A DNA stretch of 64,000 nt from a virus (IMGVR_UViG_3300032290_001086); one strand, 5' to 3'; counted from the stretch's first letter, positions 221 through 23,879 are shown. Notes: generated from the letters alone by a model not told the origin. Numbers and translations are program-made.

Positions 221-1174
221 ATGGCATTTACTCAGAAACTTTACGAAGCATATGCTGCAGTATATGATGAAGAACTTAGAGTTTCTTTATCTGAAGAAGC
301 AGAACTATTTGAAGATGTAGATTATCTTTATGATGAAGAACTAGAAGAGATTGTTGATGAAACAATCGAAGCTATGGTAGAAGAAGGTTATGACCTAGAT
401 GAAATTGAAGAAGCTTTTGACGAAATTCTAGAAGAAGCTACAGTAACTACTGGTCGTGGAGGCTATACTAAGCTAAGCTCAGATAAGCGTTCTGCACCAG
501 TAACTACTGGTCAAGGTACTGCAATGCGTCAGCAAGCAAGACGTACTGCAGTAGTTTCTGCTGCTCGTCAACGTCAAGCACAAGCAGTTAAGGATGCTCC
601 AGGAGCAGCTGCAGCTCGTGTTAAGGGTGCAGTTCAGAGCGGTGTAGCAAAAGCTAGAAAGGCTGTAGACACCGCTGCTGGAGATTATGCTGCTAAAAAC
701 AAACTAGTAACTGGCAAGAAAGGTCAAGCACTCAACAGAAGTGCTATCGGCATGAAGCAAGCATCCAAGGATCCTGCTGGCCGTAGAGGAGTTCGTTCTG
801 CAGTTGTTGGTCATCTTGCAACCAGAGCTGCAAATAAGCTTCAGCGTGGAGTTGAAAAAGTTAAAGGTGCAGTTAAGTCTGCTGGTCAAGCTGCAGTAGC
901 AAAAACTAAGTCTTCAAGTGATGCTGCTCAGGCTAAGATGCAAGCTGCAGGTTCTGCTACCAAGAAAGCTGGTAAGGGACTTCTTGGTAGAGTTGCAAGA
1001 AAGGTAGCTTCTGGTGCAGGTAAACTAGCATCCAGACTAGGGGAAGAAGTTGATGTATATGATGTAGTTCTTGATCACCTTCTATCTGAAGGGTATGCAG
1101 AAACTCCAGAAGCAGCACAAGCTATCATGGTTAATATGTCAGATGCATGGATCTCTGAGATTCTAGAAGATTGA
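221..1174 (+). CDS. Hypothetical late protein, probable internal head protein (acidic ends, Ala/Lys/Arg-rich core)
   Basis: 317 aa ORF after a late promoter; C-terminal YDVVLDHLLSEGYAET...MVNMS motif typical of cyanomyovirus proteins. Confidence 0.6.
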   Translation: MAFTQKLYEAYAAVYDEELRVSLSEEAELFEDVDYLYDEELEEIVDETIEAMVEEGYDLDEIEEAFDEILEEATVTTGRGGYTKLSSDKRSAPVTTGQGTAMRQQARRTAVVSAARQRQAQAVKDAPGAAAARVKGAVQSGVAKARKAVDTAAGDYAAKNKLVTGKKGQALNRSAIGMKQASKDPAGRRGVRSAVVGHLATRAANKLQRGVEKVKGAVKSAGQAAVAKTKSSSDAAQAKMQAAGSATKKAGKGLLGRVARKVASGAGKLASRLGEEVDVYDVVLDHLLSEGYAETPEAAQAIMVNMSDAWISEILED

Positions 1175-1197
1175 ATTTAAAGTAAAATAATGCACGA

Positions 1198-1222
1198 AGA
1201 GGTCCTATGGGACCTCTTTTTT
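1198..1222 (+). terminator. Intrinsic terminator
   Basis: AGAGGTCC-tatg-GGACCTCT followed by a T-run. Confidence 0.85.
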
Positions 1223-1297
1223 ATGCTTGTAATCCCCAGTAAAATCAAGTAAAAACCATAGGTTTTTAGTGCTTAATTCAAAAAGCCTGCTGAGGGG

Positions 1298-1326
1298 TTG
1301 ACAGGACGATTAAAACCTGCTAAAAT
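1298..1326 (+). promoter_or_regulatory. Sigma70-type early promoter
   Basis: TTGACA-17 bp-TAAAAT with extended TG. Confidence 0.75.
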
Positions 1327-1380
1327 TCACTCTGTTAGGGGTGAGATAAATATCTGAGATAATACTTAAAGAGATATATA

Positions 1381-1719
1381 ATGAAACCTCAAAGTGCTAA
1401 AGCTAAAGGTAGGAATCTACAAAAATGGGTTAGAGAACAGCTTATAGAACAATTAGAAATACATCCTGAAGATATTGAATCTCGTTCTATGGGTGCTGGC
1501 GGGGAAGACCTAATTATGGCTAGAGCCGCTAGAAGTAAATTTCCTTTTTCTATTGAATGTAAAAATGTAGAAAAACTAAATGTATGGGAAGCTTATGAAC
1601 AAGCTAAAGCTAACTCAGGTGATTATGAACCTATTGTTGTTATGAAAAAGAATCACAAAAAACCTTTAGTCGTTGTTGATGCAGAATACTTTATCAAACT
1701 ATTTGGAGAACTAAAATGA
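1381..1719 (+). CDS. PD-(D/E)XK nuclease, Holliday junction resolvase-like
   Basis: KAKGR...GEDLIM...SIECKN motif. Confidence 0.65.
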   Translation: MKPQSAKAKGRNLQKWVREQLIEQLEIHPEDIESRSMGAGGEDLIMARAARSKFPFSIECKNVEKLNVWEAYEQAKANSGDYEPIVVMKKNHKKPLVVVDAEYFIKLFGELK

Positions 1720-2408
1720 AAATCGACTTACATAACTTTTTTAAACATTATGATGAAACCAATCCAAAGCATGTTGCTGCGGTAGAAGAATTTGAAAAAA
1801 CTCTTGAAAAGAAAGCACCAGAAGAAGTAGACGATACATCTAACTGGGTTAGAATTTTTAGAACTAATCCAGAAAAACCAAAATCGAATATTTTAGAAGT
1901 TCCATTCTTCCCACAAACCGATAATTACAGAGATGCTAACCGTACTTGTAACAGTTCTAGTTGTGCTATGTGTCTTGAGTATTTTAAACCTGGCACGTTA
2001 AAAGGACCAAAAGGAGATGATGCTTACGTTCAGAAAGTTTTCTCAATTGGTGATACAACTGACCATATGGTTCAAACCCGTGTGTTGGAGTCTTATGGTA
2101 TTAAGTCACACTTTAGCTATAATCTTACTTTTGATGGCCTTGACCGTGAGCTTGCTGCAGGCAGACCAGTTGTTATTGGCATTCTCCATAGGGGGACTTT
2201 ATCTTCTCCTACTGGTGGCCACATGGTTGTAGTAATTGGTAAGTTACCTAATGGCAATTATGTTGTGAATGACCCTTACGGCTCACTAAATGATAATTAT
2301 ACAGGACCAGTAACTAATGGCAAACATGCTGTATACACGAAGCAAGATTTAATGCGTAGGTGGTGTCCTAATCGTAATGACGGATGGGGTAGGGTTTTCC
2401 AACCCTGA
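1716..2408 (+). CDS. Peptidase C39-like putative endolysin
   Basis: Q..(NRT)CNSSSCAM, GGHMVVVIG and VNDPYG give a Cys/His/Asp triad. Confidence 0.8.
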   Translation: MKIDLHNFFKHYDETNPKHVAAVEEFEKTLEKKAPEEVDDTSNWVRIFRTNPEKPKSNILEVPFFPQTDNYRDANRTCNSSSCAMCLEYFKPGTLKGPKGDDAYVQKVFSIGDTTDHMVQTRVLESYGIKSHFSYNLTFDGLDRELAAGRPVVIGILHRGTLSSPTGGHMVVVIGKLPNGNYVVNDPYGSLNDNYTGPVTNGKHAVYTKQDLMRRWCPNRNDGWGRVFQP

Positions 2409-2434
2409 TAAGTTTTATAAATATCCCAAGTAAC

Positions 2435-2463
2435 TTGACAATCCAATACTGACATGGTACTAT
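2435..2463 (+). promoter_or_regulatory. Sigma70-type promoter
   Basis: TTGACA-17 bp-TACTAT. Confidence 0.7.
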
Positions 2464-2469
2464 AGTATC

Positions 2470-2540
2470 TGGTGAATAGCTCAGTGGCAGAGCGGTCAGC
2501 GATTAACTGAATTGCGAAGGTTCGATTCCTTCTTCACCTA
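2470..2540 (+). tRNA. Atypical tRNA-like gene (Asn-like, anticodon loop CGATTAA, nominal anticodon ATT)
   Basis: Acceptor GGTGAA/TTCACC, D-arm GCTC/GAGC, T-arm GAAGG-TTCGATT-CCTTC; G at position 33 instead of U. Confidence 0.6.
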
Positions 2541-2659
2541 TTGGTAACACCAACTTATATCATAAGCGATTGAGTGTTATCATTTTGTGCCCAGGAAGGT
2601 GCTCACCGAGAGGTGAGTGTACCCCCCTTCTATTGGGATGTAGAGTTCTATTAATTTAA

Positions 2660-3022
2660 ATGCGTTTTATTTCAACCCTTCTTATTGCTTCAACCCTTAT
2701 TGGATTTACGCCCCAAAAAGCTGAAGCTGCCAGCGGATGTTCCCTGGCTTCACATTATGGTGTAGGTGATGGATATCACGGCCAAACCACCGCTAACGGT
2801 GAAAGATATAATGCATATGGTAAATCCGTTGCACATAGATGGCTTCCATTCGGAACTAGGTTACGTGTCACAAATCAACGAAATGGAAAGTCAGTTATCG
2901 TGCGAGTGAATGATAGGGGTCCATATGTCGGAGGACGAGACCTCGACCTGTCCTACGGGGCATTCTCTACTATTGCTTCCCCTGGACAGGGAGTGGCTAG
3001 TATCTGTTACTCACGAGTTTAA
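2660..3022 (+). CDS. rlpA: RlpA-like (DPBB) lytic transglycosylase with signal peptide
   Basis: ASHYG..TANGERYN..AHRWLPFGT..VRVNDRGP..DLS. Confidence 0.9.
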   Translation: MRFISTLLIASTLIGFTPQKAEAASGCSLASHYGVGDGYHGQTTANGERYNAYGKSVAHRWLPFGTRLRVTNQRNGKSVIVRVNDRGPYVGGRDLDLSYGAFSTIASPGQGVASICYSRV

Positions 3023-3060
3023 CAGATAAATAATGGGGAGATTTGATTCTCCCCTTCCTC

Positions 3061-3357
3061 ATGAAAAATAATGGATTGCCAGATAACCAGAAAGATGTCG
3101 TTGACATTCTTGGCAAAGCAGGATATTTAAAAGCAGAGAATGATAAAATTAAAGTATCATTGGACTCTGCGAATACATTAAACATTCAACCAAAAGGAAC
3201 TCCATTTGGAGCAAAGGTAAGAGTAGAATCCGATGGGTCTATAACTCCAACTCTTACTTTTGACACAAAGAAGCTTAGAGATAAATCAAACTATGTTCCT
3301 CCTAAAGATTTAGTTGATGAAGCTCTAGAAAATTTTTGGGAGAATGACAATGTTTAA
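3061..3357 (+). CDS. Hypothetical protein
   Basis: ORF; ATG 3061 preferred over the track start; ATAAATA upstream. Confidence 0.6.
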   Translation: MKNNGLPDNQKDVVDILGKAGYLKAENDKIKVSLDSANTLNIQPKGTPFGAKVRVESDGSITPTLTFDTKKLRDKSNYVPPKDLVDEALENFWENDNV

Positions 3358-3793
3358 ACTCTTTGAAATTAAAGAAGGTAAGTTTAAAGTACTTCCAATA
3401 TTAAACCCTAAATATATCAAGGGATTCGTTGTTGTTTCTATCATCGCTATTATCATTGCTGGTCTTGCTGGACAATTCAAATTAGATGAGAAACAACTTT
3501 GGAAAATCTATACAGCACTAATTCAAAAATTAGGTCTGGAACAAAATCTTCCAGACATACCAGACCATCAAAAACAACTTGATGCTAAGGTAGAATTAGA
3601 AGTTGATAAAGCAATCTCAGATTATGAACGCTTGACAGGAGACTATGGGTATGTTAAGATACCAGCTCCACGGTACTCAGAAACCCCAGTTGACACTGAT
3701 GTGTGTTATACTGATGAGTGTCGAGCATTAGGAGGAGAAATCCGACTCTGTGCTCCATGGGTCCCAGACTGCCCCTTGACAAAGCAAGAATAG
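3344..3793 (+). CDS. Hypothetical membrane protein with C-terminal Cys cluster
   Basis: Hydrophobic segment GFVVVSIIAIIIAGLAG; CYTDEC...CAPWVPDC. Confidence 0.6.
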   Translation: MTMFKLFEIKEGKFKVLPILNPKYIKGFVVVSIIAIIIAGLAGQFKLDEKQLWKIYTALIQKLGLEQNLPDIPDHQKQLDAKVELEVDKAISDYERLTGDYGYVKIPAPRYSETPVDTDVCYTDECRALGGEIRLCAPWVPDCPLTKQE

Positions 3794-3804
3794 TCTGCTA
3801 TACT
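3776..3804 (+). promoter_or_regulatory. Sigma70-type promoter for the tRNA cluster
   Basis: TTGACA-17 bp-TATACT. Confidence 0.8.
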
Positions 3805-3816
3805 TAATACACAAAT

Positions 3817-3890
3817 GACTCAGTAGCTCAGTTGGATAGAGCATCTGCCTTCTAAGCAGTTGGTCGGGGGTTCAAGTCCCTCCTGAGTCG
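3817..3890 (+). tRNA. tRNA-Arg(TCT)
   Basis: Cloverleaf, loop CTTCTAA. Confidence 0.95.
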
Positions 3891-3920
3891 TGACAACTGA
3901 ATAAATTAAGGCATGAAACA

Positions 3921-4178
3921 ATGTACAAAATCAGATGCAAATGTTGCAATTCCAATCTTGAAGTAGCAACTCCAAACAGGGGACAATCTTGTAAATGTCC
4001 CAACGAAACTTACATAAGGCTTGACAACAACGGATTACCTGTTATAATAGCTCAAGACATGAGCCAAGTAGAAATGGTAACAGGATTTACTAAACCAAAA
4101 CAAAAGCAATCAAAAATGATGGAACAATTGAACACTCCAAAAAGACGAATAAGAAGACTAGATTACGAAGTTCGTTAA
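3921..4178 (+). CDS. Hypothetical Cys-rich protein
   Basis: CKCC...CKC motif. Confidence 0.65.
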   Translation: MYKIRCKCCNSNLEVATPNRGQSCKCPNETYIRLDNNGLPVIIAQDMSQVEMVTGFTKPKQKQSKMMEQLNTPKRRIRRLDYEVR

Positions 4179-4186
4179 TTTAGTCT

Positions 4187-4257
4187 GGGAGCATAGCTTA
4201 ATGGTAGAGCGGCCTGCTTATAACGGGTTGGTCTGGGTTCAATTCCCAGTGTTCCTA
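4187..4257 (+). tRNA. tRNA-Ile(TAT)
   Basis: Cloverleaf, loop CTTATAA, A73. Confidence 0.9.
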
Positions 4258-4280
4258 TTAGGAATCGACGGGTTCCTAAA

Positions 4281-4466
4281 GAATGTGGCAGAACAATCCT
4301 TGTGGTTACTCACGGGATAACGCAATAGATTAGAGGTGGTGCTCGCTGTATCGTTGAGAAATCAAAGGTATAGAACTTCCAACCAAGAAGAATCTAGGTA
4401 CTTGGAAATACGGTTGTCAGTGTAACCTTCCAGGTTGTGGGTATGACAGATTCCCACCATTCACCA
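4281..4466 (+). ncRNA. Unnamed multi-stem structured RNA ending in ACCA
   Basis: GAATG/CATTC closing stem, several internal helices, GAAA tetraloop, no ORF in the track. Confidence 0.55.
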
Positions 4467-4540
4467 CGGGATGTAGCTCAGTTTGGTAGAGCACTCGCTT
4501 TGGGAGCGAGGGGCCGTAGGTTCAAATCCTATCATCCCGA
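4467..4540 (+). tRNA. tRNA-Pro(TGG)
   Basis: CGGGATG acceptor, loop TTTGGGA. Confidence 0.95.
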
Positions 4541-4610
4541 TTACCGTTTACAGAACTTCCCTTCTGACGGTAAATACCACTAGTATATTATTCAACATAG
4601 ACCACAATCG

Positions 4611-4719
4611 CCGTTGGATAGTTTATTAGTTTGACGTTGAACTGCAAAGTCAGCATACGGATAGAGGTTAGGTCCCTGAATACTACTGGAAATATTCGGG
4701 GGTATTCACACCTAATCCA
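4611..4719 (+). ncRNA. Unnamed pseudoknotted RNA candidate
   Basis: CCGT/ACGG, TTGAC/GTCAG, TTAGGT/ACCTAA, CCCTGAATA/TATTCGGGG and TGGAT/ATCCA pairings. Confidence 0.45.
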
Positions 4720-4722
4720 TCT

Positions 4723-4796
4723 GGGGAATTAGCTCAGTTGGTAGTAGCACTTGCTTTGCAAGCAAGATGTCATCGGTTCGAGTCCGATATTCTCCA
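4723..4796 (+). tRNA. tRNA-Ala(TGC)
   Basis: Loop TTTGCAA; G3:U70 identity pair. Confidence 0.95.
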
Positions 4797-4815
4797 TTCC
4801 CTTTATATTATTACT

Positions 4816-5049
4816 ATGGGAGACTCGGTTAAGTATCAAATTGAAAAATCCAGAGAAGCACTTCGTTCTGCACTTGAACTAGGTGCAACACATGAAGATG
4901 TATGGACTCTTTCTCAGATTGCATCTGCATTGAGTACTGTTGAAGCACTACTTGCTTCACAATCACAGAAAAATTACACATTAAAAAATCCATATTACAA
5001 TGGATATGTAAGTAGTGGTATTTCTGATGATGTTATTACATTTAAATAA
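4816..5049 (+). CDS. Hypothetical protein
   Basis: MGDSVKYQ...; start moved downstream of tRNA-Ala. Confidence 0.65.
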   Translation: MGDSVKYQIEKSREALRSALELGATHEDVWTLSQIASALSTVEALLASQSQKNYTLKNPYYNGYVSSGISDDVITFK

Positions 5050-5103
5050 ATAACATCAATACTCCTCAAGCCTATCTATAGAAGCTCAAACAGAGGAGTC
5101 ACT

Positions 5104-5175
5104 GCGGAGTTAGTTCAGCGGTAGAACGCTATCCTTCCAAGTTAGATGTCGTCGGTTCGATTCCGATACTCCGCT
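5104..5175 (+). tRNA. tRNA-Gly(TCC)
   Basis: GCGGAGT/ACTCCGC acceptor, loop CTTCCAA, U73. Confidence 0.95.
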
Positions 5176-5196
5176 TCCCTCATATATGAGGTTATT

Positions 5197-5355
5197 ATGT
5201 CACTTATTTCTCAAACAGACCGTCAGATGGCTATTGAAGCTCTTGAATATTATGTTCAAAGGCTTAAAGATGATAACTGCACTCAAGCATCCATCAATGC
5301 ATTTCAAACACTTCTGAATTGGATTGAACTTGAACATTACAAACATGAACATTAA
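5197..5355 (+). CDS. Hypothetical protein
   Basis: MSLISQTDRQ...; GAGG SD before ATG 5197. Confidence 0.65.
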   Translation: MSLISQTDRQMAIEALEYYVQRLKDDNCTQASINAFQTLLNWIELEHYKHEH

Positions 5356-5521
5356 ACTTTGGTATTGTAAGCATATGAATCAGTGGAGGTGGACTCTAAC
5401 TGATGACTCTAGGCCAATTATTAAACAAGAATCTGGTCAACGTCCAAATCTTCGTGATGCAATGAATGATGTTGCAACTACTGTTGAATACTTATTAAAC
5501 ATTCATCCTGAAGAAATGTAA
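5345..5521 (+). CDS. Hypothetical cyanophage protein
   Basis: MNIKLWYCKHMNQWRWTL... Confidence 0.65.
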   Translation: MNIKLWYCKHMNQWRWTLTDDSRPIIKQESGQRPNLRDAMNDVATTVEYLLNIHPEEM

Positions 5522-5531
5522 TATTAATTAT

Positions 5532-5603
5532 CCTTGGGTAGTCTAGTGGCCAGGACACGCAGACAATGCAGTTGGAGTTTGGGTTCGATTCCCGACCTAA
5601 GGT
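5532..5603 (+). ncRNA. tRNA-like RNA with an unpaired, scrambled anticodon arm
   Basis: Acceptor CCTTGGG/CCTAAGG, D-arm GTC..GAC, T-arm TTGGG-TTCGATT-CCCGA; canonical length but no anticodon stem. Confidence 0.6.
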
Positions 5604-5861
5604 ACTAGTGGCACTGGAAAGATAAACCAGAATGCTGTAGTAAAGGGTGCAACAAGGAACGTTACATTAAACAAAGAATCCCCTCGGCCACATCGTAGAA
5701 AAAGCGAAACTGGCTTCATCATAAGTTGCTAAGTCGCTTAACGTAGGTGGACATTCTTGCCCTTAAAATCGTAGGTGCCAAAACCGCTCTTCATCCCTAG
5801 TATTCTGTGGGTGAGTGAAAGTAAAGAGTGATAACATAGGTAAAGTTATCTCCACCTACCA
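5604..5861 (+). ncRNA. Structured non-coding block (two or three folded domains)
   Basis: AAGGG/CCCTT, CCAC/GTGG, AAGCGA/TCGCTT, GTAGGTG/CACCTAC and GATAAC/GTTATC helices. Confidence 0.45.
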
Positions 5862-5864
5862 CAA

Positions 5865-5936
5865 TGGCGTGTAGCATAACGGTAATGCAAACGACTGTTA
5901 ATCGTAGGACTGTAGGTTCGATTCCTACCACGCCAG
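5865..5936 (+). tRNA. tRNA-Asn(GTT)
   Basis: Loop CTGTTAA, G73. Confidence 0.95.
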
Positions 5937-5970
5937 TTGCCGATAAATATGAGTATCGGTGAATACTAAA

Positions 5971-6237
5971 ATGAAATACAAAATTTCTTCAATGTACTGT
6001 TTTTATCAGGACGAAATTGTAGACATGTATTTCATCAATAATGTGCCATTTACATTTGAAGATATTCCTCAGATAATGCAGGATGACCCATATATTCAAA
6101 TGGAAGCGGCTAATAATCCTGAATATTCTCCAGAGGATTTATACAAAACATCTTTTTATCTAATAGATGAAGAATGTCACCCATGTCTATTTCCAGTAGA
6201 CTTGGAGAATCCTGAGGATATGCCACCAGTAGATTAG
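5971..6237 (+). CDS. Hypothetical cyanophage protein
   Basis: Acidic ORF MKYKISSMYCFY... Confidence 0.65.
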   Translation: MKYKISSMYCFYQDEIVDMYFINNVPFTFEDIPQIMQDDPYIQMEAANNPEYSPEDLYKTSFYLIDEECHPCLFPVDLENPEDMPPVD

Positions 6238-6238
6238 T

Positions 6239-6310
6239 GCCTCTTTAGCTCAGTGGTAGAGCACTCGCCTTGTAAGCGAGCGGTCATCAGTTCAAATCTG
6301 ATAGGGGGCT
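6239..6310 (+). tRNA. tRNA-Thr(TGT)
   Basis: Loop CTTGTAA. Confidence 0.95.
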
Positions 6311-6331
6311 TAAGTCTAACACTTAAAACTA

Positions 6332-6544: not shown

Positions 6545-6546
6545 TC

Positions 6547-7252: not shown

Positions 7253-7280
7253 TAAATTCAATAAATATTGATATCACCCA

Positions 7281-7326: not shown

Positions 7327-7337
7327 TTAAAATTCAA

Positions 7338-7678: not shown

Positions 7679-7687
7679 AAATGGGGG

Positions 7688-9473: not shown

Positions 9474-9486
9474 ACTGAATAAATAC

Positions 9487-9511: not shown

Positions 9512-10144
9512 ATGTCTATAAAATTAACTGATGCTGCGAAACACACTGAAGGATATATGCATCAAATGGATGCATGGGAATATCTCCAGCAAAATACTCC
9601 ACCTAAAGTATTAGAAGAATTTGCAAAGCGATTTAGAAATGAATATAAATCTGTAGATTCTAGTGTAATTCCTCAAGCTGGAGTCAGATTAATTAAAGAA
9701 TTTGAAGGTTGTCATTTAAGTGCATATTACGACCCTCTTACTGGGGGACTTCCTATTACAATTGGTTGGGGAAGTACGAAAGATTTAAATGGTAAACCGT
9801 TTAAAATTACAGACAAAATTACTCAACAGCAAGCAGACCAACTGTTTGAATATCAATTAAGAAATCAATATCTTTCTCCACTTACTAAAATTCCATATTG
9901 GAATGAAATGAATGAAGAAATGCGTGGTGCATTACTTTCATTTGTATATAATCTTGGTGCTAACTTTTATGGCTCAGATGGATTTGGTACAATCACCAAA
10001 GTATTAAAAGATAAATCTTGGCACATGGTTCCTGAAGCACTTTATCGTTATCGCAATCCAGGATCCAGTGTAGAGAAAGGACTTGCTAGAAGACGTAGAG
10101 CTGAAGGTGCTTTATGGGAAACAGGATTATCTAAGATAAAATAA
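9512..10144 (+). CDS. GH24 phage lysozyme (endolysin)
   Basis: LIKEFEG..AYYD..TIGWG..GLARRRRAE. Confidence 0.9.
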   Translation: MSIKLTDAAKHTEGYMHQMDAWEYLQQNTPPKVLEEFAKRFRNEYKSVDSSVIPQAGVRLIKEFEGCHLSAYYDPLTGGLPITIGWGSTKDLNGKPFKITDKITQQQADQLFEYQLRNQYLSPLTKIPYWNEMNEEMRGALLSFVYNLGANFYGSDGFGTITKVLKDKSWHMVPEALYRYRNPGSSVEKGLARRRRAEGALWETGLSKIK

Positions 10145-10796: not shown

Positions 10797-10956
10797 GTAA
10801 GTTCTGCTCCATGTAGGTATATAATTTTTCTTTCAGCTCACCAAATACATCCCACATTTCGTCAGACCCAGTTTTTTCTTGGTACGCATTACATGCTAAA
10901 ATTAAATAATCAATATCTGTTGAGTTAAGTCTGTACATAGATCTTTTCCAACTCAA
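10774..10956 (-). CDS. Hypothetical protein
   Basis: ORF; CTAAATA late-type promoter upstream on the minus strand. Confidence 0.55.
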   Translation of the reverse strand: MSWKRSMYRLNSTDIDYLILACNAYQEKTGSDEMWDVFGELKEKLYTYMEQNLHGREKDI

Positions 10957-10976: not shown

Positions 10977-11040
10977 TTGACAGCCTTTGTAATCTATGCT
11001 ACTATAAATAAATGTTAAGGGATGGAAACATTCCTTAACA
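10977..11040 (+). promoter_or_regulatory. psbA dual early/late promoter and 5' hairpin
   Basis: TTGACA-17 bp-TACTAT overlapping TATAAATA; TGTTAAGGGATG-gaaa-CATTCCTTAACA. Confidence 0.8.
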
Positions 11041-11073
11041 AACATTCATAAACTCTTACGAACTTTTAAAACT

Positions 11074-12875
11074 ATGACTGCTACCATCGCTCAACGCAAT
11101 GGAAGTAATACATGGGAACAGTTCTGTGAGTGGGTAACATCTACCAACAACCGTCTGTATGTCGGTTGGTTTGGAACTCTTATGATTCCTACCCTTCTCG
11201 CTGCTACTATCTGTTTCATCGTTGCTTTCATTGCTGCTCCTCCCGTAGACATACTGCTTTAATCTGTGTCCTTCATCCGTAAGGATGATGTTAAAACTGG
11301 GTGAATTGCTGGAAACCGAAAGGCAATCAGCAGCCAAGTCCAAAGTACACTTTGGAAAGGTTCAGAGACTACCTGAGGGGTTTAGTCCCCTTAATAACAG
11401 GCTAGAGTGCCCAGCCCCTTTAATCTAATTAAAGGGTGAAGATATAGTCCAAATCTCACAGTTGACTTTTATTCGCACTTGTTGTATAAATATAACAGTA
11501 GGTGCGAAAACAAAATGCTCGATTTAACGGAATCACAAATTACTTGGATTGCGGGAATTTTAGAAGGTGAAGGATACTTTGGAATAGATAATCGTTCTAA
11601 AGACCGTTATGACTCTTCTAAAGCACCACCAGCACCATATATTCGTCTTGTTATGACTGATGAAGATGTGGTTGCTAAACTAAGTAATTTTGTAGACAAA
11701 CCCTATTTTGTACCCAATAGAAAAACACTCAAAGGAAAACCAGTCTATGTCCTTCATATAGGAAATAGAGAAAAAGTTCTTTTCATTTTGGAAAAAATAC
11801 TTCCCCATATGGGAAATAGAAGAAGTGAAAGAATTAAAGAATGTATTTCTTATATTAATGAGTGGAAAGAGTGGGTAGAAAATGGTGGGAGAGTAGAAAA
11901 CGCAAAACGAGCAAATCAAATAGGTCAACTGAAACGGTCTAAGTCGCAAGATATGACTGTTTTACTGGGATAAGAGACGGGATTCGTGAACCAGTTGCTG
12001 GTTCTCTAATGTACGGAAACAACATCATTTCTGGTGCTGTTGTTCCTTCTAGCAATGCTATCGGTCTGCACTTCTATCCCATCTGGGAAGCCAACTCGCT
12101 TGACGAATGGCTATATAATGGTGGACCATTCCAATTGGTCGTATTCCACTTTCTAATTGGTATCTATGCCTACATGGGTCGTGAATGGGAACTTTCTTAC
12201 CGTCTTGGTATGCGTCCCTGGATTTGCGTTGCTTACTCTGCTCCTGTTGCTGCTGCTTCTGCGGTCTTCCTTGTATATCCTTTCGGTCAAGGTTCCTTCT
12301 CTGATGCAATGCCTCTTGGAATCTCAGGAACGTTTAACTACATGCTCGTCTTCCAAGCAGAACACAACATTCTTATGCATCCGTTCCATATGCTTGGGGT
12401 TGCTGGGGTATTTGGTGGCTCTCTCTTTAGTGCTATGCACGGAAGTCTGGTTACGAGTAGCCTTGTTCGTGAAACCACAGAAGTAGAATCTCAGAACTAC
12501 GGCTACAAGTTCGGTCAAGAAGAAGAGACTTATAACATCGTTGCTGCTCACGGTTATTTTGGTCGCCTTATTTTCCAATATGCTTCCTTTAATAACTCAC
12601 GTTCGCTGCACTTCTTCCTTGCTGCTTGGCCTGTAGTTGGTATCTGGTTTACTGCTCTTGGTGTTAGCACCATGGCATTCAACCTCAATGGTTTCAACTT
12701 TAACCAGTCGATTACCGATAGTCAGAATCGTGTCATCCCCACCTGGGCAGACATTCTGAATCGTGGTGGTCTTGGAATGGAAGTGATGCATGAGCGAAAC
12801 GCTCACAACTTCCCCCTCGACCTGGCTGCTGCTGAGATGACTCCTGTTGCTCTTACTGCACCAGCCATCGGCTGA
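11074..12875 (+). CDS. psbA: Photosystem II D1 protein, spliced: exon 1 11074-11252, exon 2 11975-12875 (359 aa)
   Basis: Joining GAC AT|A GAC GGG restores PPVDIDGIREP; 179+901 = 1080 nt. Confidence 0.97.
11253..11974 (+). mobile_element. Group I intron in psbA (after nt 179)
   Basis: P1 GACAU/GUGUC with U-G at the splice site; P AATTGCTGGAAA, Q AATCAGCAGC, R GTTCAGAGACTA, S AAGATATAGTCC; terminal G at 11974. Confidence 0.95.
11515..11973 (+). CDS. Intron-encoded single-motif LAGLIDADG homing endonuclease
   Basis: [12 protein letters not shown] motif; ATG at 11515; stop immediately before the terminal G. Confidence 0.85.
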
Positions 12876-13684: not shown

Positions 13685-14062
13685 ATGCCTTATAAAAATA
13701 AAGAACAGCAACGAGAAGCCCAGAAACGGTGGGCACAAAAACAATCGGATGAGTTCAAAAAAATTAAATATCAACGTGAATACGATAACAAAAAATTAAT
13801 GGTAGAAAAACTTAATAATTTTAAGCTTGAAAAGGGTTGCTGTGAATTGTGTGGAGAGTCTCATCCTGCTTGCTGTTTTGACTTTCACCATGTAAATGAA
13901 CTAAATAAAAAAACAGAGGTGTCAAAGCTTGCCTCTAAAGGATATAAGTGGAAAACTATTCAAGAAGAAATTGACAAATGTATTATGCTTTGTGCCCTTT
14001 GTCATAGAAAAATTCATGCTGGATTATTAGTATTAATGGAGAATAGCACCGATGGTCGGTAA
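13685..14062 (+). CDS. HNH homing-type endonuclease
   Basis: CELCGESH..FDFHH..LCALCHRKIH. Confidence 0.8.
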   Translation: MPYKNKEQQREAQKRWAQKQSDEFKKIKYQREYDNKKLMVEKLNNFKLEKGCCELCGESHPACCFDFHHVNELNKKTEVSKLASKGYKWKTIQEEIDKCIMLCALCHRKIHAGLLVLMENSTDGR

Positions 14063-14120
14063 ATCGTCTTGAAAACGATGCCAGGTTAATAGCCTGATAG
14101 TTCGATTCTATTATTCTCCG
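14038..14120 (+). tRNA. tRNA-Ser(TGA), 8/4-type non-canonical fold
   Basis: GGAGAATA/TATTCTCC acceptor, ACCGA/TCGGT D-stem, loop CTTGAAA, long V-arm, G73. Confidence 0.85.
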
Positions 14121-14138
14121 CTTGTTCATACTTTAATT

Positions 14139-14294
14139 ATGGATGAAAAATTTTACAAAGAATTCTGCGAAAGAATTCAACATAGTATGCAAATTTCAAT
14201 TAAACATGGACACAATGAATATGCACTAGGACTTAGAAAGTCTATGGTAATTGTTAATGAATTGAGACATAAGTATCATAATGATACTAAATAA
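14139..14294 (+). CDS. Small hypothetical protein (51 aa)
   Basis: MDEKFYKEFCERIQHS... Confidence 0.5.
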   Translation: MDEKFYKEFCERIQHSMQISIKHGHNEYALGLRKSMVIVNELRHKYHNDTK

Positions 14295-14318
14295 TAACAC
14301 TCTATCAAAAATACTATT

Positions 14319-14510
14319 ATGAAGCAATGCCCTGCATGTAAAGTAGTTATTGAAGATGGAGTAGCAAAATTTTCACATGGAAAACCTGGAGATTTAGAAT
14401 TTCTTGCAAAAAGAGTTTGTCAGTACAGAAAAGTAGATGCTCCTTGTATAAATCCATGTTATAATGAAGAACAAGAATATCCACCTGGATATGAAGATTT
14501 AATTTTTTAA
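14319..14510 (+). CDS. Cys-rich hypothetical protein
   Basis: CPAC...RVCQY...CINP. Confidence 0.6.
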   Translation: MKQCPACKVVIEDGVAKFSHGKPGDLEFLAKRVCQYRKVDAPCINPCYNEEQEYPPGYEDLIF

Positions 14511-14520
14511 AAAACACAGT

Positions 14521-14715
14521 ATGACAACTAATCAAGAAAAAACTGAAGAACTTGAAATTGAACTAGATGATAATACTGCTGCTATTGTACATCTTATGGC
14601 AGAGGAACGTGGTATTACAGTAGAAGAATTAATCCAACAGGTTTTGGATGACGCCATTCAAAATGGATATTTTAATGATACAAATAATATTACAGTGGAT
14701 GACCCACTAGACTAA
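14521..14715 (+). CDS. Hypothetical protein, ribbon-helix-helix-like
   Basis: LEIELDD..MAEERGITVEELIQQVL. Confidence 0.5.
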   Translation: MTTNQEKTEELEIELDDNTAAIVHLMAEERGITVEELIQQVLDDAIQNGYFNDTNNITVDDPLD

Positions 14716-14875
14716 TGAATCTTTACTTTTATTTTTTAGTTACTGTAGCTTTAATCTGTTATCTTTGTGTTATAGATTCAAATGTAACAGATTGGATTAA
14801 TATTAAAATTAATCATTTTTTAGTTTATCTTCAACTTCAATATATAAAAATGAAGTGGAAGTTTAAACGTTTCTA

Positions 14876-14957
14876 GGGTAGGTGTCCGAGTGGTTAATGG
14901 AGGTGGACTGTAAATCCACTGGCTCTGCCTACGGGGGTTCAAATCCCTCCCTGCCCA
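14876..14957 (+). tRNA. tRNA-Tyr(GTA)
   Basis: Loop CTGTAAA, long V-arm. Confidence 0.95.
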
Positions 14958-16383: not shown

Positions 16384-16386
16384 CAC

Positions 16387-17265: not shown

Positions 17266-17268
17266 ACC

Positions 17269-17721: not shown

Positions 17722-17722
17722 C

Positions 17723-17980
17723 ATGTGTAAAATCGTACATCAAGATTGCAATAAATCTCTAGCAAAAGATAAAACCCTTCCATTGAATTCTTATATTGTC
17801 ACATACGTACTTGACAATGAGACAAAATATGATATAGTAGTATGTAACAAACGAGCACAAATCTTTGACCTGTATTGGGATACGTACCGAGAAGGTCTAA
17901 AAGATATTCGTTGGACTGATGGAAAAGTCAACCCAAAATTTTGGGGAGTTGAACCAAAAGAAACTAAAAAGAAAAAGTAA
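17723..17980 (+). CDS. Conserved cyanophage hypothetical protein
   Basis: LPLNSY..YDIV..G.VNPK.WG. Confidence 0.7.
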   Translation: MCKIVHQDCNKSLAKDKTLPLNSYIVTYVLDNETKYDIVVCNKRAQIFDLYWDTYREGLKDIRWTDGKVNPKFWGVEPKETKKKK

Positions 17981-17982
17981 TT

Positions 17983-18735: not shown

Positions 18736-18765
18736 TGCTATACTAGAATTATCTAAACTTACATT

Positions 18766-19314
18766 ATGAACATCTTTTATTTGAATTACAATCCAGTTGT
18801 GTGTGCTCAAGAGCATTGTGATAAGCATGTTGTTAAAATGATTGTTGAATATGCACAACTTCTTTCTACCGCTCATCGAGTTCTTGACGGTATTGGTTAT
18901 GTTGAACTTTCTGAAAAGAATCGTAAAGTCAAACGATTCAAACTCGATGAACCACGAGAATCAAATCTCTATAAAGCTTGTCATATTAACCACCCTTCTG
19001 CTGTCTGGGCTAGGAGTTCTAAATCACATTACAAGTGGCTATACGAACTCTTTGAACAGTGCTGTATTGAATACACCAGGAGATATGGCAAGTTTCATGC
19101 TACTGAATCTTTGAGAGCATATCTAAAATATTCTCCCAATAATCTTCCTGACTTTGGTTGGCAAGACCCCCCTCCTGCCATGCCCGATAAATACAAAGTA
19201 GCTGATTCAATTCAGTCTTACAAAAATTATTACATTGGGGACAAAGTTTCATTTGCGAAATGGAAATCTCCATCAACAATTCCTGAATGGTTTAAAACAA
19301 ATGCCAACATATAG
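18766..19314 (+). CDS. Pyrimidine-dimer DNA glycosylase / endonuclease V-like
   Basis: MNIFYL..HCDKHVVKM..HINHP..W. Confidence 0.75.
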   Translation: MNIFYLNYNPVVCAQEHCDKHVVKMIVEYAQLLSTAHRVLDGIGYVELSEKNRKVKRFKLDEPRESNLYKACHINHPSAVWARSSKSHYKWLYELFEQCCIEYTRRYGKFHATESLRAYLKYSPNNLPDFGWQDPPPAMPDKYKVADSIQSYKNYYIGDKVSFAKWKSPSTIPEWFKTNANI

Positions 19315-19531
19315 ATTTAGAGATAATAACACGGGTGAACATTTTGATAAATGGATGTACATGGCTGAACGAGAAACGTACTTGGCGGAAAATCCTCACC
19401 TTACACAAGTCCCCACAGGACTTAATGTAGTTGGTGGGGTTGGAGAAATGAAAAACCAAGCTCCAGATACTTTTAAAGACGTTCTTCGTCGCATCAAATC
19501 AAACCATGCACATTCAACTATAGACGTATGA
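19301..19531 (+). CDS. FmdB-like small protein
   Basis: MPTYRF...; ATG at 19301. Confidence 0.6.
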   Translation: MPTYRFRDNNTGEHFDKWMYMAERETYLAENPHLTQVPTGLNVVGGVGEMKNQAPDTFKDVLRRIKSNHAHSTIDV

Positions 19532-20283
19532 CCAGTTCACGCAGAAGAAAACCCGACCAATCATTTGCTGATATTCCAGCTAAAAAAATGAGAAGAAAAA
19601 GACCAATTGATAATGAGCACATGAGGAATATTTCTCCTCTTACTCCAGCTCAAGAAAAGGTATTTGAGGAATATTCTAATGAAAAGAATCTTTTTCTTTA
19701 TGGTGCTGCAGGCACTGGTAAAACTTTCGTTAGTTTATATCTTGCTCTCAAGGATGTCTTGAATGAAAAAACTCCATATGACAAAGTTTATATGGTTCGT
19801 TCTTTAGTATCCACTAGAGAAATTGGATTTCTTCCTGGAGACCATGAAGACAAGTCAAGTCTTTATCAAATTCCATATAAGAACATGGTGAAGTACATGT
19901 TTGAAATGCCAGATGAAGCATCGTTTGAAGCTTTATACGGCAATCTCAAAGGTCAAGGAACAATTAGTTTCTGGAGTACTTCTTTTATTCGTGGTACAAC
20001 ACTTGACAACTGTGTTATAATTGTAGATGAAAGTCAGAATCTTAACTTCCATGAGTTAGATTCGATTATCACTCGTGTTGGTCAGGACACTAAAATTATT
20101 TTCTGTGGCGATGTAAATCAAACAGACTTAATTAAAACCAACGAAAGAAATGGCATTTTAAATTTTATGAGTATTCTTCAAACAATGGAAGAATTTTCTA
20201 TGATTGAATTTGGTATTGAAGATATCGTTCGTTCTGGTCTTATCAAGAGTTATCTAATTAGTAAAATGAATTTAGGACTGTAA
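19528..20283 (+). CDS. phoH: PhoH-family ATPase
   Basis: GAAGTGKT, IGFLPG, FIRGTT, DESQN. Confidence 0.95.
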   Translation: MTSSRRRKPDQSFADIPAKKMRRKRPIDNEHMRNISPLTPAQEKVFEEYSNEKNLFLYGAAGTGKTFVSLYLALKDVLNEKTPYDKVYMVRSLVSTREIGFLPGDHEDKSSLYQIPYKNMVKYMFEMPDEASFEALYGNLKGQGTISFWSTSFIRGTTLDNCVIIVDESQNLNFHELDSIITRVGQDTKIIFCGDVNQTDLIKTNERNGILNFMSILQTMEEFSMIEFGIEDIVRSGLIKSYLISKMNLGL

Positions 20284-20951
20284 TGTTTGTACATTTAAAT
20301 AATGCTTCTTTGATTGATTTACAAGCTGAAACAACAGGTAACGGAAGGTACTATGTCACCCCTGCAGGTGATAAGTATCCTTCCGTTACTACTGTTATTG
20401 GGGCAAAATCAAAAAAATCTATTCTCCAATGGAGAAAAAGAGTAGGAGAAAAAGAAGCTAATCGTATTTCTTCCAGAGCTGCACTTAGGGGAACTAATCT
20501 TCATCTAATAAATGAAGATTACCTAAATAATATATTCAATGAAGAGAAGTACAAGGATAAAGTGCTTCCTCTATACATGTTTAAATGTTTAAAACCTTTT
20601 CTAGATAAAATTAATAATATCCATACTCTAGAGGGGGCATTGTATAGCGATAAATTAAAGCTTGCTGGAAGAGTCGATTGCATTGCAGAATACGAGAATG
20701 AGCTTGCAATTATAGATTTCAAAACATCTACTGAACCAAAGAAGCGAGAATGGATTGACAATTACATAGCTCAGGAATGTGCATACGCAATGATGTATTA
20801 TGAACGTACTGGGATTAAAGTAAAGAAACTCGTAACTCTAATTGCATGTGAGGATGGAGAAATTCAAGTCTTTCAGGAATATGACATTAAGAAATATATG
20901 AGCGTGTTATTAGATTACATTAGAGAATGGAAAATGCAAACTAATCCCTAG
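20283..20951 (+). CDS. PD-(D/E)XK (Cas4/RecB-like) exonuclease
   Basis: YPSVTTV, GTNLH, AGRVD, IDFKTS, QECAY. Confidence 0.85.
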   Translation: MFVHLNNASLIDLQAETTGNGRYYVTPAGDKYPSVTTVIGAKSKKSILQWRKRVGEKEANRISSRAALRGTNLHLINEDYLNNIFNEEKYKDKVLPLYMFKCLKPFLDKINNIHTLEGALYSDKLKLAGRVDCIAEYENELAIIDFKTSTEPKKREWIDNYIAQECAYAMMYYERTGIKVKKLVTLIACEDGEIQVFQEYDIKKYMSVLLDYIREWKMQTNP

Positions 20952-20957
20952 GTTCTA

Positions 20958-21263
20958 ATGGAGAATACAAAACAAATAAAATTAAAACAACCTGTTATTC
21001 CTAACACTGAAACTTTTGAACAATTTATTGAAGACAAATTTATGACAGCTACAAAATTTTCTATGGAAGTTGAAGAAATTGTTCGCTCTAATCAGGGCGG
21101 ACTTAATTATATTGAAGCAGTTCTTGTTTACTGCGAAAAATATAATATTGAATTGGAGAACGTGTCAAAATTAATTTCAAAACCGTTAAAGGAAAAAATT
21201 AAAGTTGATGCACAACGAATGAACTTTATGAAAAAATCATCGAGAGCAAGACTTCCTCTATGA
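20958..21263 (+). CDS. gp33: Late transcription co-activator gp33
   Basis: FSMEVE..YIEAV..LISKPLKEKI..RARLPL; synteny. Confidence 0.85.
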   Translation: MENTKQIKLKQPVIPNTETFEQFIEDKFMTATKFSMEVEEIVRSNQGGLNYIEAVLVYCEKYNIELENVSKLISKPLKEKIKVDAQRMNFMKKSSRARLPL

Positions 21264-21844
21264 ATGGTTTTGAAGTTTATAGATTATATCTATCTATAAA
21301 ATTACATTTTACAAAAGAAGATTTTGATTTTTTTCTATGTAACGGAAAAGCTAGAGCATCAGTTCAATCTTTTGAAAAAAGAAAAGATTGTTATTTTTTT
21401 AAAAAGTTAGCAACAAAATTTTCAAGGGATGAACTCATCCAATATTTTGTTGCTAACTTTATTGATAATGAGCATACTTGGATTGGAAGTATTTCAAAGA
21501 TTGAAAATTCTAAAGTTTATCCTACTTGGAAAAAAAGAATTCAAAGTATGTCATTTATCTTTGAGAGTGAGATTATAGAATTATTAAATGAACATAGCTT
21601 TGAAGATATATTTACAGTTACTGGTACACACCCACCATTAATAACAAAATATATGTCTGGAAGAGTGAGTTTAGAAACTCTTGTTATATTAAATAAGTTA
21701 TTAAATTACATTCCTGATTTTAATAAAAAAATAACTGAGCCTATTATATGGCCAGATTTAAAAAGAAAGGTAGTAAAATACGAACCTTTCATATCTATAG
21801 AGAGAACTAAATACAAGAAGATACTCTTAGATAAAGTAAATTAA
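21260..21844 (+). CDS. gp59: Helicase loader gp59
   Basis: YLSIKLHF..YFFKKL..SLETLVIL. Confidence 0.85.
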   Translation: MNGFEVYRLYLSIKLHFTKEDFDFFLCNGKARASVQSFEKRKDCYFFKKLATKFSRDELIQYFVANFIDNEHTWIGSISKIENSKVYPTWKKRIQSMSFIFESEIIELLNEHSFEDIFTVTGTHPPLITKYMSGRVSLETLVILNKLLNYIPDFNKKITEPIIWPDLKRKVVKYEPFISIERTKYKKILLDKVN

Positions 21845-22179
21845 TGTCTTTCTTTGAACAAGATTTAATTAAAAGTGAGTTAGAAGAAATGATGAATCTC
21901 TACATGGAGATACGTGAAAGCTTGGCTAACCCATTGAGTCAAACATTAGAAACTAAAAAAGAGTGTCTAGGTAAATTAGAGAGATTGGTAGAGTTACAAG
22001 AATTATTATACTTTAGAGCAAAATATTCAGAAGATTCTGAAGCAAAAGAATTTGCATCTACATTGAGAGACTCTGCAGTATTCTTAGGAATACCTCCAGG
22101 AACTGATTTGTCTGAAATATTTACACATATGAAACAAGACATCGCCAGTGCTCTGGAGAAGCTTGACAAGCCGACCTAA
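21844..22179 (+). CDS. Conserved cyanophage hypothetical protein
   Basis: MSFF..; lies between gp59 and gp32. Confidence 0.7.
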   Translation: MSFFEQDLIKSELEEMMNLYMEIRESLANPLSQTLETKKECLGKLERLVELQELLYFRAKYSEDSEAKEFASTLRDSAVFLGIPPGTDLSEIFTHMKQDIASALEKLDKPT

Positions 22180-22191
22180 CCCTGCTATACT
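22163..22191 (+). promoter_or_regulatory. Sigma70-type promoter of gp32
   Basis: TTGACA-17 bp-TATACT. Confidence 0.8.
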
Positions 22192-22217
22192 AGTCATGTA
22201 TTCGGTGGACAACGCTG

Positions 22218-22262
22218 AATCCAAACAATCCAATTAATCCAACTAATACGGAGAATCCAAAT
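22218..22262 (+). repeat. 9-nt periodic AATCCAAnn repeats in the gp32 leader
   Basis: aatccaaac aatccaatt aatccaact aatacggag aatccaaat. Confidence 0.75.
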
Positions 22263-23154
22263 GTCATTTGCAACTCTAAAGCGTAATTCATCTTCAGTCT
22301 TTGATAAGCTAACTAAAGAGATTGAAAAAAGTGCTTCATCTGAAGGTGGTTCAGATGAACGTCTCTGGAAGCCAGAAGTAGACAAAGCTGGAAATGGTTA
22401 TGCTGTAATTCGATTCCTACCTGCTACAGAAGAAGGTGGTATTCCCTGGGCCAAACTATACTCCCATGCATTCCAAGGTCCTGGTGGATGGTATATCGAA
22501 AACTCACTCACCACACTAAATCAGAAAGACCCAGTAGGAGAACTCAATCGCCAGCTCTGGAATAGTGGTAGTGAAAAGGATAAAGAAACTGCACGTAAGC
22601 AGAAGCGTAAGCTGTCATACTACAGCAATATCTACGTACTAAAAGACCCTGCAAATCCAGATAACGAAGGTAAAGTATTTCTATACAAGTACGGCAAGAA
22701 GATTCACGATAAAATCATCGAAGCAATGCAACCAGCATTTGCAGATGAAACTCCAGTAAACCCATTTGACCTTTGGGATGGTGCTGATTTCAAACTAAAG
22801 ATTCGTAAGGTAGATGGCTATTGGAATTATGATAAGTCTGAGTTTGCATCTACTGGAACTCTAGGTAACTTTGACGATGACCAACTAGAAAAAATCTACA
22901 ACAAGATTCATACTCTTGAAGAGTTTACTTCTGGAAGTAACTTCAAAACTTACGAAGAACTAGAGCGTAGGCTTCAATCAGTTCTAAGTCCTTCTAAGGT
23001 ATCCGCATTTAAAGCTGATGCCGAAACAATGGAGGAAGAGGAACAAATGGTAGAAGAAGTCTCTCGTCCAACTGTAGCTTCTCGTGTAAGCTCTACTAAT
23101 GATGATGAAGATGATACCCTAAGTTACTTCGCTCGACTAGCTGAAGAAGACTGA
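22261..23154 (+). CDS. gp32: Single-stranded DNA-binding protein gp32
   Basis: GNGYAVIRFLP, GKKI.DKI, NYDKSEF, acidic tail. Confidence 0.95.
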   Translation: MSFATLKRNSSSVFDKLTKEIEKSASSEGGSDERLWKPEVDKAGNGYAVIRFLPATEEGGIPWAKLYSHAFQGPGGWYIENSLTTLNQKDPVGELNRQLWNSGSEKDKETARKQKRKLSYYSNIYVLKDPANPDNEGKVFLYKYGKKIHDKIIEAMQPAFADETPVNPFDLWDGADFKLKIRKVDGYWNYDKSEFASTGTLGNFDDDQLEKIYNKIHTLEEFTSGSNFKTYEELERRLQSVLSPSKVSAFKADAETMEEEEQMVEEVSRPTVASRVSSTNDDEDDTLSYFARLAEED

Positions 23155-23172
23155 ATTAATTAGTAAAACAAT

Positions 23173-23197
23173 GGGGGGCGTAAGCCCCCCTTTTTTT
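23173..23197. terminator. Terminator between convergent gp32 and gp53
   Basis: GGGGGGC-gtaa-GCCCCCC + T7. Confidence 0.85.
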
Positions 23198-23879
23198 ATT
23201 TTATATCTGGAAGTCTGACACCAAGTTCATCTATATTATACTCAGTATCATATGCAAATAGTTTTGCAATTTCTTCTTTCATCTTTGTTAGATATTTTTT
23301 TTGAATTAAAAATATATCTTTTTTATTTTCATTTTTATCATATTCAAATTCTCTGAATGTAACTCTACGTAATACTTGGGGAGCTGCTAAAGTTTTAACA
23401 ACTTGACCATCTTTAAATGTAAATGTGTACTGGTTTCCCCTTGAGTCTTTTGGATAATAATTAGGATTATTTTGTTCTGTTCTACCTTCGTTCAGTTCAA
23501 TGATAACTCCACCAGGAAGAACTACTGCTCCAGCAGTATTTTTAATCTGAAAGGTTTCCCAATGTTTGATATTATTTTGTCTTGGACCATATTGCTTTTC
23601 TATTGAAACATCTAATTCGACCGCATCAACTGGCCAATCATTGTTAATATCAATAATATTATTTAAAAGTAAAATAGTCCAATACCATTCTGTAGATCCA
23701 TACTTATCATATGAGATAGATTCTGGAGTTTCTCCATCTTTGATAGTATATTTAAATGAGTTAATGTATAACGCATTTATGTTATCTCTAAATCTTACTC
23801 TTCGGAATAAATTTTTTGATAACTTTGCTCCTCCCTTTACTTGAGGATAATAAATGTTTGGCTGTGAATCAAAGAACAT
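23196..23879 (-). CDS. gp53: Baseplate wedge protein gp53 (LysM-like)
   Basis: YTIKDGETPESISYDKYG..WTILLLNNI..DWP. Confidence 0.85.
   Translation of the reverse strand: MFFDSQPNIYYPQVKGGAKLSKNLFRRVRFRDNINALYINSFKYTIKDGETPESISYDKYGSTEWYWTILLLNNIIDINNDWPVDAVELDVSIEKQYGPRQNNIKHWETFQIKNTAGAVVLPGGVIIELNEGRTEQNNPNYYPKDSRGNQYTFTFKDGQVVKTLAAPQVLRRVTFREFEYDKNENKKDIFLIQKKYLTKMKEEIAKLFAYDTEYNIDELGVRLPDIK

Follow-up and report, generated by a model that had tools for sequence, protein, structure and literature searches.

Staphylococcal phage K avoids the tetranucleotide GATC across its whole genome, and enterobacteriophages are said to do likewise, as reportedly noted by McClelland in 1985 and by Deschavanne and Radman in 1991. 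In such genome-wide avoiders the site is removed by synonymous changes, presumably under pressure from Dam, MutH or MboI-type host functions. In the literature searched, the only phages with site avoidance limited to part of the genome are ones whose DNA enters the cell in stages: the leading region of the T7-like Murciavirus is free of the motif of a Type I restriction-modification (R-M) system, and the first-step-transfer DNA of T5 is without EcoRI sites (PMC12455610 and work cited there). Here we describe a regional loss of GATC in a 64,000-nucleotide stretch of viral DNA, IMGVR_UViG_3300032290_001086 (hereafter the window, meaning the whole stretch), which derives from a T4-like freshwater cyanomyophage. 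Our literature searches turned up no account of GATC being avoided regionally in a cyanophage or a T4-like phage.

The window phage shares with T5 and Murciavirus the absence of a restriction-type motif from the region of the first-needed genes and its tolerance elsewhere, with sensitivity set by the location of sites and not by their number. It differs in that the T5 and Murciavirus regions are injected first from fixed ends, whereas the window phage has a T4-type, presumably headful packaging machinery; moreover, its GATC-poor domain spans ~53 kb and is interrupted by GATC-bearing genes, and some late genes outside the domain are depleted too. With the genome-wide avoiders it shares the tetramer and the synonymous manner of removal, and two of its distant relatives (metagenome contigs L145 and L168) show the genome-wide form. 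In the window phage, however, avoidance is limited to particular transcription units, and adjacent late genes gain GATC freely. A further parallel is a non-phage element with ordered entry of single-stranded DNA, where selection is likewise concentrated on DNA needed before counter-defence expression; there, expression classes have no role.

The window contains 112 GATC sites, of which only two (10062 and 10940) fall within positions 1153–23694; the next is at 23695. Outside this block, 107 sites occur in the remaining 40.3 kb (2.65/kb). A maximal-order Markov model predicted 62.7 sites in 1153–23694, against two observed, and 137.7 in the rest, against 107. Shuffling synonymous codons within each gene gave 48.0 ± 4.8 sites (minimum 35 in 500 shuffles) for the coding part of the block, where one is present, and 141 ± 7.7 for the late part, where there are 105. 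Codon usage and amino-acid content were ruled out as causes by this per-gene shuffle. The depletion spans all three reading frames and extends to non-coding DNA: the 3.3 kb of non-coding sequence in the block, including 11 tRNA genes, has one GATC, and none lies in the 11 tRNA genes of the depleted domain. Before C, aspartate is encoded in the block by GAC 34 times and by GAT never, though GAT makes up 78% of Asp codons elsewhere; in the late genes the same context has 59 GAT and 14 GAC. For isoleucine following G, ATC is never used in the block. A first-pass annotation, made from the sequence alone, had named the two sites within 1153–23694, and our count reproduced their positions exactly, together with three sites in the open reading frame (ORF) at 221–1174 (770, 1073 and 1150), the codon contrast at Asp, and about 20 sites at 24.9–30.7 kb (21 counted); the depletion it described proved to be real and understated.

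The density ratio between block and rest was 0.03 for GATC and 0.39 for the next-lowest tetramer with real counts, so that no other tetramer shifts comparably; an equal shift of other tetramers was what the first pass had named as indicating a horizontally acquired block. The sites CCGG, GCGC, CGCG and ATCGAT are avoided in both parts, and GATC alone is therefore regional: those four sites show the genome-wide avoidance expected of Type II targets, whereas GATC has an observed/expected ratio of 0.74 in the late module, with free turnover. There is one CCGG site in ~106 kb, no CGCG in the window, and no ATCGAT. The avoidance of these four sites suggests ordinary restriction avoidance or CpG depletion beside the regional GATC effect.

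The source of the window has a Kyanoviridae-type genome, that of a T4-like cyanomyovirus, in which T4 core replication and structural genes are arranged as in cyanomyophages and psbA and further host-like genes are present. The genes identified include gp32, gp59, gp33, RNase H, phoH, thyX and psbA in the window, and gp13-gp23, uvsY/W/X, gp41, gp43, gp44/62, gp45-47, gp61 and nrdAB upstream. Gene order in the window is syntenic with that of Synechococcus phage S-CREM1. The closest relatives are freshwater metagenome contigs, and the best genome matches of the window psbA are freshwater Cyanobium/Synechococcus-type metagenome-assembled genomes. Exact-match and megablast searches found no close relative of the window in IMG/VR and a phage collection. 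Through the protein of ORF 221–1174 we found an ENA contig (105,046 bp) with 100% identity over window positions 1–5175, and an upstream walk along this contig by protein look-ups yielded 46.8 kb more of the phage. A chimeric assembly was ruled out by the 100% match over 5175 bp and by independent assemblies: two Logan contigs (L092 and L099) belong to the window phage and have the same GATC pattern, L099 encoding the same ORF860, and independent JGI and NCBI assemblies of relatives repeat the pattern. All the relatives compared are metagenome contigs.

The extended sequence revealed a GATC-poor domain of ~53 kb, about one third of the genome, running from the interior of uvsW to the terminator of gp32 (23173). 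On the left, GATC ends inside uvsW at a window coordinate of about −29,270, that is, 29.3 kb upstream of the window; the 22.5-kb block of the first pass is indeed depleted, but its extent had been drawn too short. The motif is thus missing from one region and present elsewhere in the same genome. The whole domain has 15 GATC in 53.0 kb where 167 are expected; without two islands, 4 remain in 48.2 kb against 150 expected, and the rest of the sequence has 139 against 196. There are no sites at all in putative gp55, gp47, gp46, gp45, gp44, gp62 and regA, or in gp43, uvsX, gp41, MazG, gp61, nrdA and nrdB, and the upstream stretch is broken by just two single GATC sites. Codon shuffling by gene group gave observed and expected counts of 0 vs 32.6, 1 vs 19.2, 0 vs 19.2, and 1 vs 48. 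Taken together, the depleted units cover virtually the entire module for replication, recombination, nucleotide metabolism and auxiliary metabolism, and several of them open with sigma-70-like promoters, including a perfect sigma-70 consensus ahead of gp61. One of the few GATC in the domain, at L098:1327, separates a pair of small ORFs on the minus strand in the unit L098:1097–1745, ~17.7 kb upstream of the window.

The two islands hold eleven GATC in three genes, eight in ORF400/ORF860 and three in ORF317, and motif scans place promoter and terminator signals at their edges. Two ATAAATA motifs precede ORF860, and a terminator follows it. ORF317 (221–1174, plus strand), in which 3 sites are observed against 4.4 expected, is an insulated unit with a late-type promoter: the T4-type late promoter motif TATAAATA lies 31 nt upstream of it (183–190, plus strand), and an intrinsic terminator-like hairpin with a 10-bp stem and a T run closes the unit (1196–1219, plus strand). 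Its three GATC positions recur in the GATC-normal relative L096, and the homologue in L093-95 has none. The GATC-free stretch is then opened by a sigma-70-like promoter (1298–1326, plus strand; TTGACA-17-TAAAAT with TG, 11/12 matches). The part of the domain inside the window (1153–23694, plus strand; 2 sites vs ~63 expected) encodes a RusA-like ORF, a C39 peptidase, a DPBB protein, 11 tRNAs, an SLH protein, petF (ferredoxin), lysozyme, an intron-bearing psbA, RNase H, thyX, phoH, a Cas4-like gene, gp33, gp59 and gp32. One of its two exceptional sites (10062–10065) is 82 nt ahead of the lysozyme stop codon, with an ATAAATA motif upstream at 9479; the other (10940–10943) falls in a spacer between a cluster of small minus-strand ORFs and the psbA promoter (TATAAATA at 11003), and this spacer is probably untranscribed.

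A second sigma-70-like promoter (22163–22191, plus strand; 11/12) precedes gp32, and a strong two-way terminator hairpin with 7 G-C pairs (23173–23190) separates gp32 from the convergent gp53 and marks the right edge of strict depletion. The earlier observation that the boundaries fall near transcription-unit borders is therefore borne out on both sides. Beyond this edge, the baseplate genes gp53 and gp48 (23196–24873, minus strand) form a transition zone with one GATC; depleted relatives have 0–1 site here, vs 3 in the normal relative L083, and reach normal density from the gp4 homologue on (L090 ends in gp53). Inclusion of gp53/gp48 in the strict domain was unsupported, as the codon-shuffle null gave 1 observed vs 1.8 expected, which is not significant. 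The late module of baseplate, tail and fibre genes follows (24910–64000, plus strand), with 2.65 GATC per kb, an observed/expected ratio of ~0.74 and high turnover of sites between lineages. The site drifts freely in ORF317, ORF400/860, uvsY/uvsW, the terminase, the sheath, and the tail/baseplate module.

Next, we compared relatives across both boundaries. Contigs spanning the right boundary were gathered through gp32 homologues that are 80–88% identical. In several of them (L085, L086/87, L089 and L090) the whole stretch psbA–gp32 is free of GATC, whereas the equally related L083/84 have ~2.7 GATC/kb on both sides of the boundary. At the left boundary and around ORF317, GATC ends inside uvsW in L104 and L105 exactly as in the window phage; L106 and L093-95 are GATC-free over a still wider span, and L096/97, L108, L109 and L111 carry normal GATC in the same genes. 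Among more distant relatives, L145 (1 GATC) and L168 (0 in 21 kb) have nearly or fully lost the site across late and early genes, L121 groups with them as a relative without GATC genome-wide, and most of the more distant relatives are GATC-normal. A general cyanomyophage trait was ruled out, since GATC is normal to the left and right of gp32 in S-CREM1 and in nearly all of the 80 relatives from IMG/VR. Within the regions compared, we found no gene that sets the depleted lineages apart. The 112-aa RusA-like ORF (1381–1719) occurs in two depleted lineages and is replaced in one normal lineage, too few lineages to interpret. In L096/L097 a SegE-like GIY-YIG homing endonuclease (L096:11132–12031, minus strand) stands in place of the RusA-like/PDDEXK ORF of the window and L093-95.

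Site turnover was followed in a six-sequence alignment of the window phage and its relatives. The window lineage, L085, L086, L089 and L090 have no GATC in the 39.6 kb of aligned block, and the adjacent late genes of the window lineage, L085, L086 and L089 (L090 does not cover them) hold 16–27 sites each. Private late-gene sites number 6–9 per lineage, 30 in 33 kb, from which ~36 private sites would be expected in the block. Nucleotide identity between lineages is 78–84% in the block and 74–80% in the late genes, and the private late-gene sites of the window are surrounded by sequence whose identity is unremarkable (0.756 vs 0.781), the pattern expected of point mutations. At the GATC columns of a normal relative, the depleted lineages show assorted one-step variants (GATT, GACC, GATG), often differing from one another and never restoring GATC. 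A GATC-free block inherited without selection would have regained sites, and none was regained, indicating that selection is continuing. Some late-gene sites are kept in every lineage, the depleted ones included; uniform genome-wide selection would have purged these conserved sites, so the selection is not uniform. We conclude that sustained purifying selection acts on GATC in specific transcription units, a reading to which we assign a probability of roughly 85%.

The depleted state is labile and probably convergent. In trees of UvsW, gp47 and gp46, the window lineage (with L104 and L105) is sister to the GATC-normal L108/L109/L111, and the depleted L106 branches outside the clade formed by the window lineage and these normal phages. 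Fifteen GATC columns of the domain are common to the normal L108/L109/L111 and the normal outgroups L110/L112, which identifies them as ancestral sites; on this phylogeny, the domain was probably purged twice independently. At the edge of the depleted domain, uvsY of the window phage (L102:8097–8528) is 95% identical to that of the normal L109 and 83% identical to that of the sister L104, and carries the two GATC positions of L109; by these similarities, uvsY is a small recombinational import.

The late genes to the left of the domain gave a less uniform picture. The genes gp14, o517, gp20, gp22 and gp23 together have 2 GATC vs 24.6 expected, so that portal, scaffold and capsid genes are depleted, and gp16, the DUF5661 gene, gp17, gp18, gp19 and gp21 have 24 vs 27.7 expected. 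This late-left region alternates between GATC-free and GATC-normal blocks of 1–6 kb each. Normal site density in late genes, as first proposed, thus stands for the terminase, sheath and tail but not for gp14, gp20, gp22 and gp23. Similarly, the proposed position- or expression-class-specific pressure is regional and still acting, but the split between early and late is not clean.

As to the agent, we tentatively favour a GATC-specific host nuclease that would harm only units read from the infecting copy, at somewhat less than even odds. The factor recognising GATC would most likely be a DpnII/MboI-type restriction endonuclease or nickase that damages infecting DNA, and the damage would be costly only for those units whose transcription by host RNA polymerase depends on the one parental copy. 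After phage replication, recombination or an early-made countermeasure, sites elsewhere would no longer matter. Such a scheme would give the phage, by time of need and without ordered entry, an equivalent of the site-free DNA that T5 and T7-like phages inject first. Support for a DNA-level agent comes from GATC being a 4-bp palindrome and from the distant relatives with complete GATC avoidance (L145 and L168). Among 251 genomes sampled from the likely host family, one has a DpnII-family gene beside a D12 methylase gene and another has a DpnII match; enzymes of the DpnII/MboI type occur sporadically in picocyanobacteria. The adjoining matches, to a DpnII-family endonuclease and a D12-class adenine methylase, lie at G079:C91:10130–11874 and form a probable GATC R-M pair of a picocyanobacterium, judging from homology.

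Several points weigh against the interpretation set out above. The depletion of late genes is graded and patchy, which simple timing does not predict; an effect exerted through the expression of the individual gene, at the RNA level for example, would be in keeping with it. Units with late-type promoters are GATC-free inside the domain (from the o201 head-protein homologue to DUF7201, the SLH protein, and psbA), and the expression classes used here were assigned from motif scans alone. The phage sequence covered amounts to 110.8 kb of a 169-kb genome, and a separate early-gene cluster, ~76 kb upstream of the window, belongs to the other ~58 kb. Because a lethal double-strand break would be equally costly at any position, the nuclease model has to assume damage that acts locally on expression, through nicks, slow or resealable cuts, or a roadblock. 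No anti-restriction gene was recognised in Pfam (30) and PHROG (10) scans of selected ORFs of the domain, where many small ORFs have no assigned function. The first pass had suggested a search for a phage dam gene, and a scan for DPPY-type methylase motifs over 102.4 kb found no Dam-like gene.

The gene-by-gene grading would follow more naturally from an RNA-level agent, in that a GAUC-specific endoribonuclease, whether a host toxin, an abortive-infection enzyme or a phage RegB-like enzyme, would cleave transcripts, so that fitness-limiting messages, those of early/middle genes and of the most abundant head genes, lose the site and low-demand tail messages keep it. Gene-by-gene resolution, with islands bounded by terminators and promoters, is what such an enzyme would leave behind; the graded loss in the late genes (portal, scaffold and capsid, and not tail) fits a cost that scales with transcript importance; and tRNA genes and transcribed spacers are GATC-free, the exception at 10940 being in a probably untranscribed spacer. 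Nevertheless, we regard it as rather unlikely: a palindrome of four bases is the hallmark of enzymes that act on DNA as dimers, the fully GATC-less relatives resemble ordinary restriction avoidance, the terminase and sheath messages have normal site numbers, and we know of no endoribonuclease with GAUC specificity. The capsid genes would be left unexplained if, instead, GATC in the virion were adenine-methylated and the methyl-GATC template impeded host RNA polymerase, directly or through a phage or host factor that silences methylated host DNA. (For comparison, the T4 protein Alc acts on cytosine DNA.) Any unit that the unmodified host polymerase transcribes off parental DNA would then need to be free of the site, and late units would be read from fresh, under-methylated copies. 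The sigma-70-like promoters at the start of several GATC-free stretches agree with this; even a weak per-site effect would be enough in very large phage populations, and the state flips between sister lineages, as expected if GATC methylation by host or phage varies. The scanned phage sequence has no Dam-like motif, however, and D12-type methylases were present in only ~13% of the genomes of the likely host family that were sampled (other methylase families were not searched), and methylation therefore seems an unlikely cause.

Two further accounts concern how the domain arrived, in the cell or in the genome. With fixed or weakly permuted ends, the depleted domain could enter first and an early anti-restriction function protect the rest, and both the single contiguous domain of ~53 kb with fairly sharp edges and the experimental precedents in T5 and Murciavirus speak for such ordered entry. 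The small and large terminase, portal and contractile tail are of T4 type, though, and by homology imply headful packaging and circular permutation; avoidance of this kind should not apply to headful phages (PMC12455610), eleven GATC lie in three genes inside the domain, and the domain occupies ~1/3 of the genome. The staged DNA entry listed in the first pass is thus improbable, given the gp16/gp17 terminase and these GATC-bearing genes. That annotation also offered a mosaic origin as the simpler alternative, in which a block from a GATC-free lineage recombined with GATC-normal late modules and no selection acts at present. Genome-wide GATC-less relatives do exist (L145, L168 and L121), recombination does import sites, as with the two L109 positions in uvsY, and the late-left region alternates between GATC-free and normal blocks of 1–6 kb. 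As a sole explanation it fails: only GATC segregates and no other tetramer shifts, block and late genes are about equally diverged between lineages, and the block genes are syntenic in GATC-normal sisters. The block has stayed GATC-free through ~20% divergence, with zero regain in 39.6 kb though lineages gained ~1 private late site per kb; conserved late core sites persist in all depleted lineages, and the purge probably occurred twice. A pure mosaic relic is largely refuted and, in our estimate, very improbable.

Some other features of the window were recorded. In psbA (11044–12875), an insertion of ~723 bp (11253–11975), which relatives L083 and L085 are without, splits the gene and carries a 164-aa ORF (11479–11973); a minus-strand 'ORF' at 11056–11343 is the reverse reading of psbA exon 1. 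ARAGORN predicted twelve tRNA genes (2470–6310, 14038–14957 and 38344–38427), among them two whose anticodons are unusual (Asn-ATT, 2470; His-ATG, 5532). The late module includes a 5011-aa ORF (38846–53881) and another of >1659 aa that runs past the window end (59023–63999); both presumably encode giant fibres or adhesins.

Avoidance of restriction sites is ordinarily assessed genome by genome; in this phage it is all-or-none in some transcription units and missing from the genes beside them, and whole-genome observed/expected values would miss the regional signal. It also occurs in a type of phage, T4-like and presumably headful, where position-dependent avoidance is explicitly not expected (PMC12455610). 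It is possible, if doubtful, that GATC or GAUC serves as a self/non-self or timing mark in gene expression, read by a pre-replicative endoribonuclease or through a template-directed block to transcription. If so, the entire early/middle gene set would have been made immune by recoding, twice independently, and the principle of defence or host shutoff would be one undescribed for T4-like phages. The GATC-free, partly free and normal close lineages constitute a natural experiment for a host or phage factor in freshwater picocyanobacteria, and could show whether the vulnerable target is infecting DNA or transcripts. In uncultured phages, mapping which units are depleted may also allow expression class, or the time at which a gene is needed, to be estimated from sequence alone.

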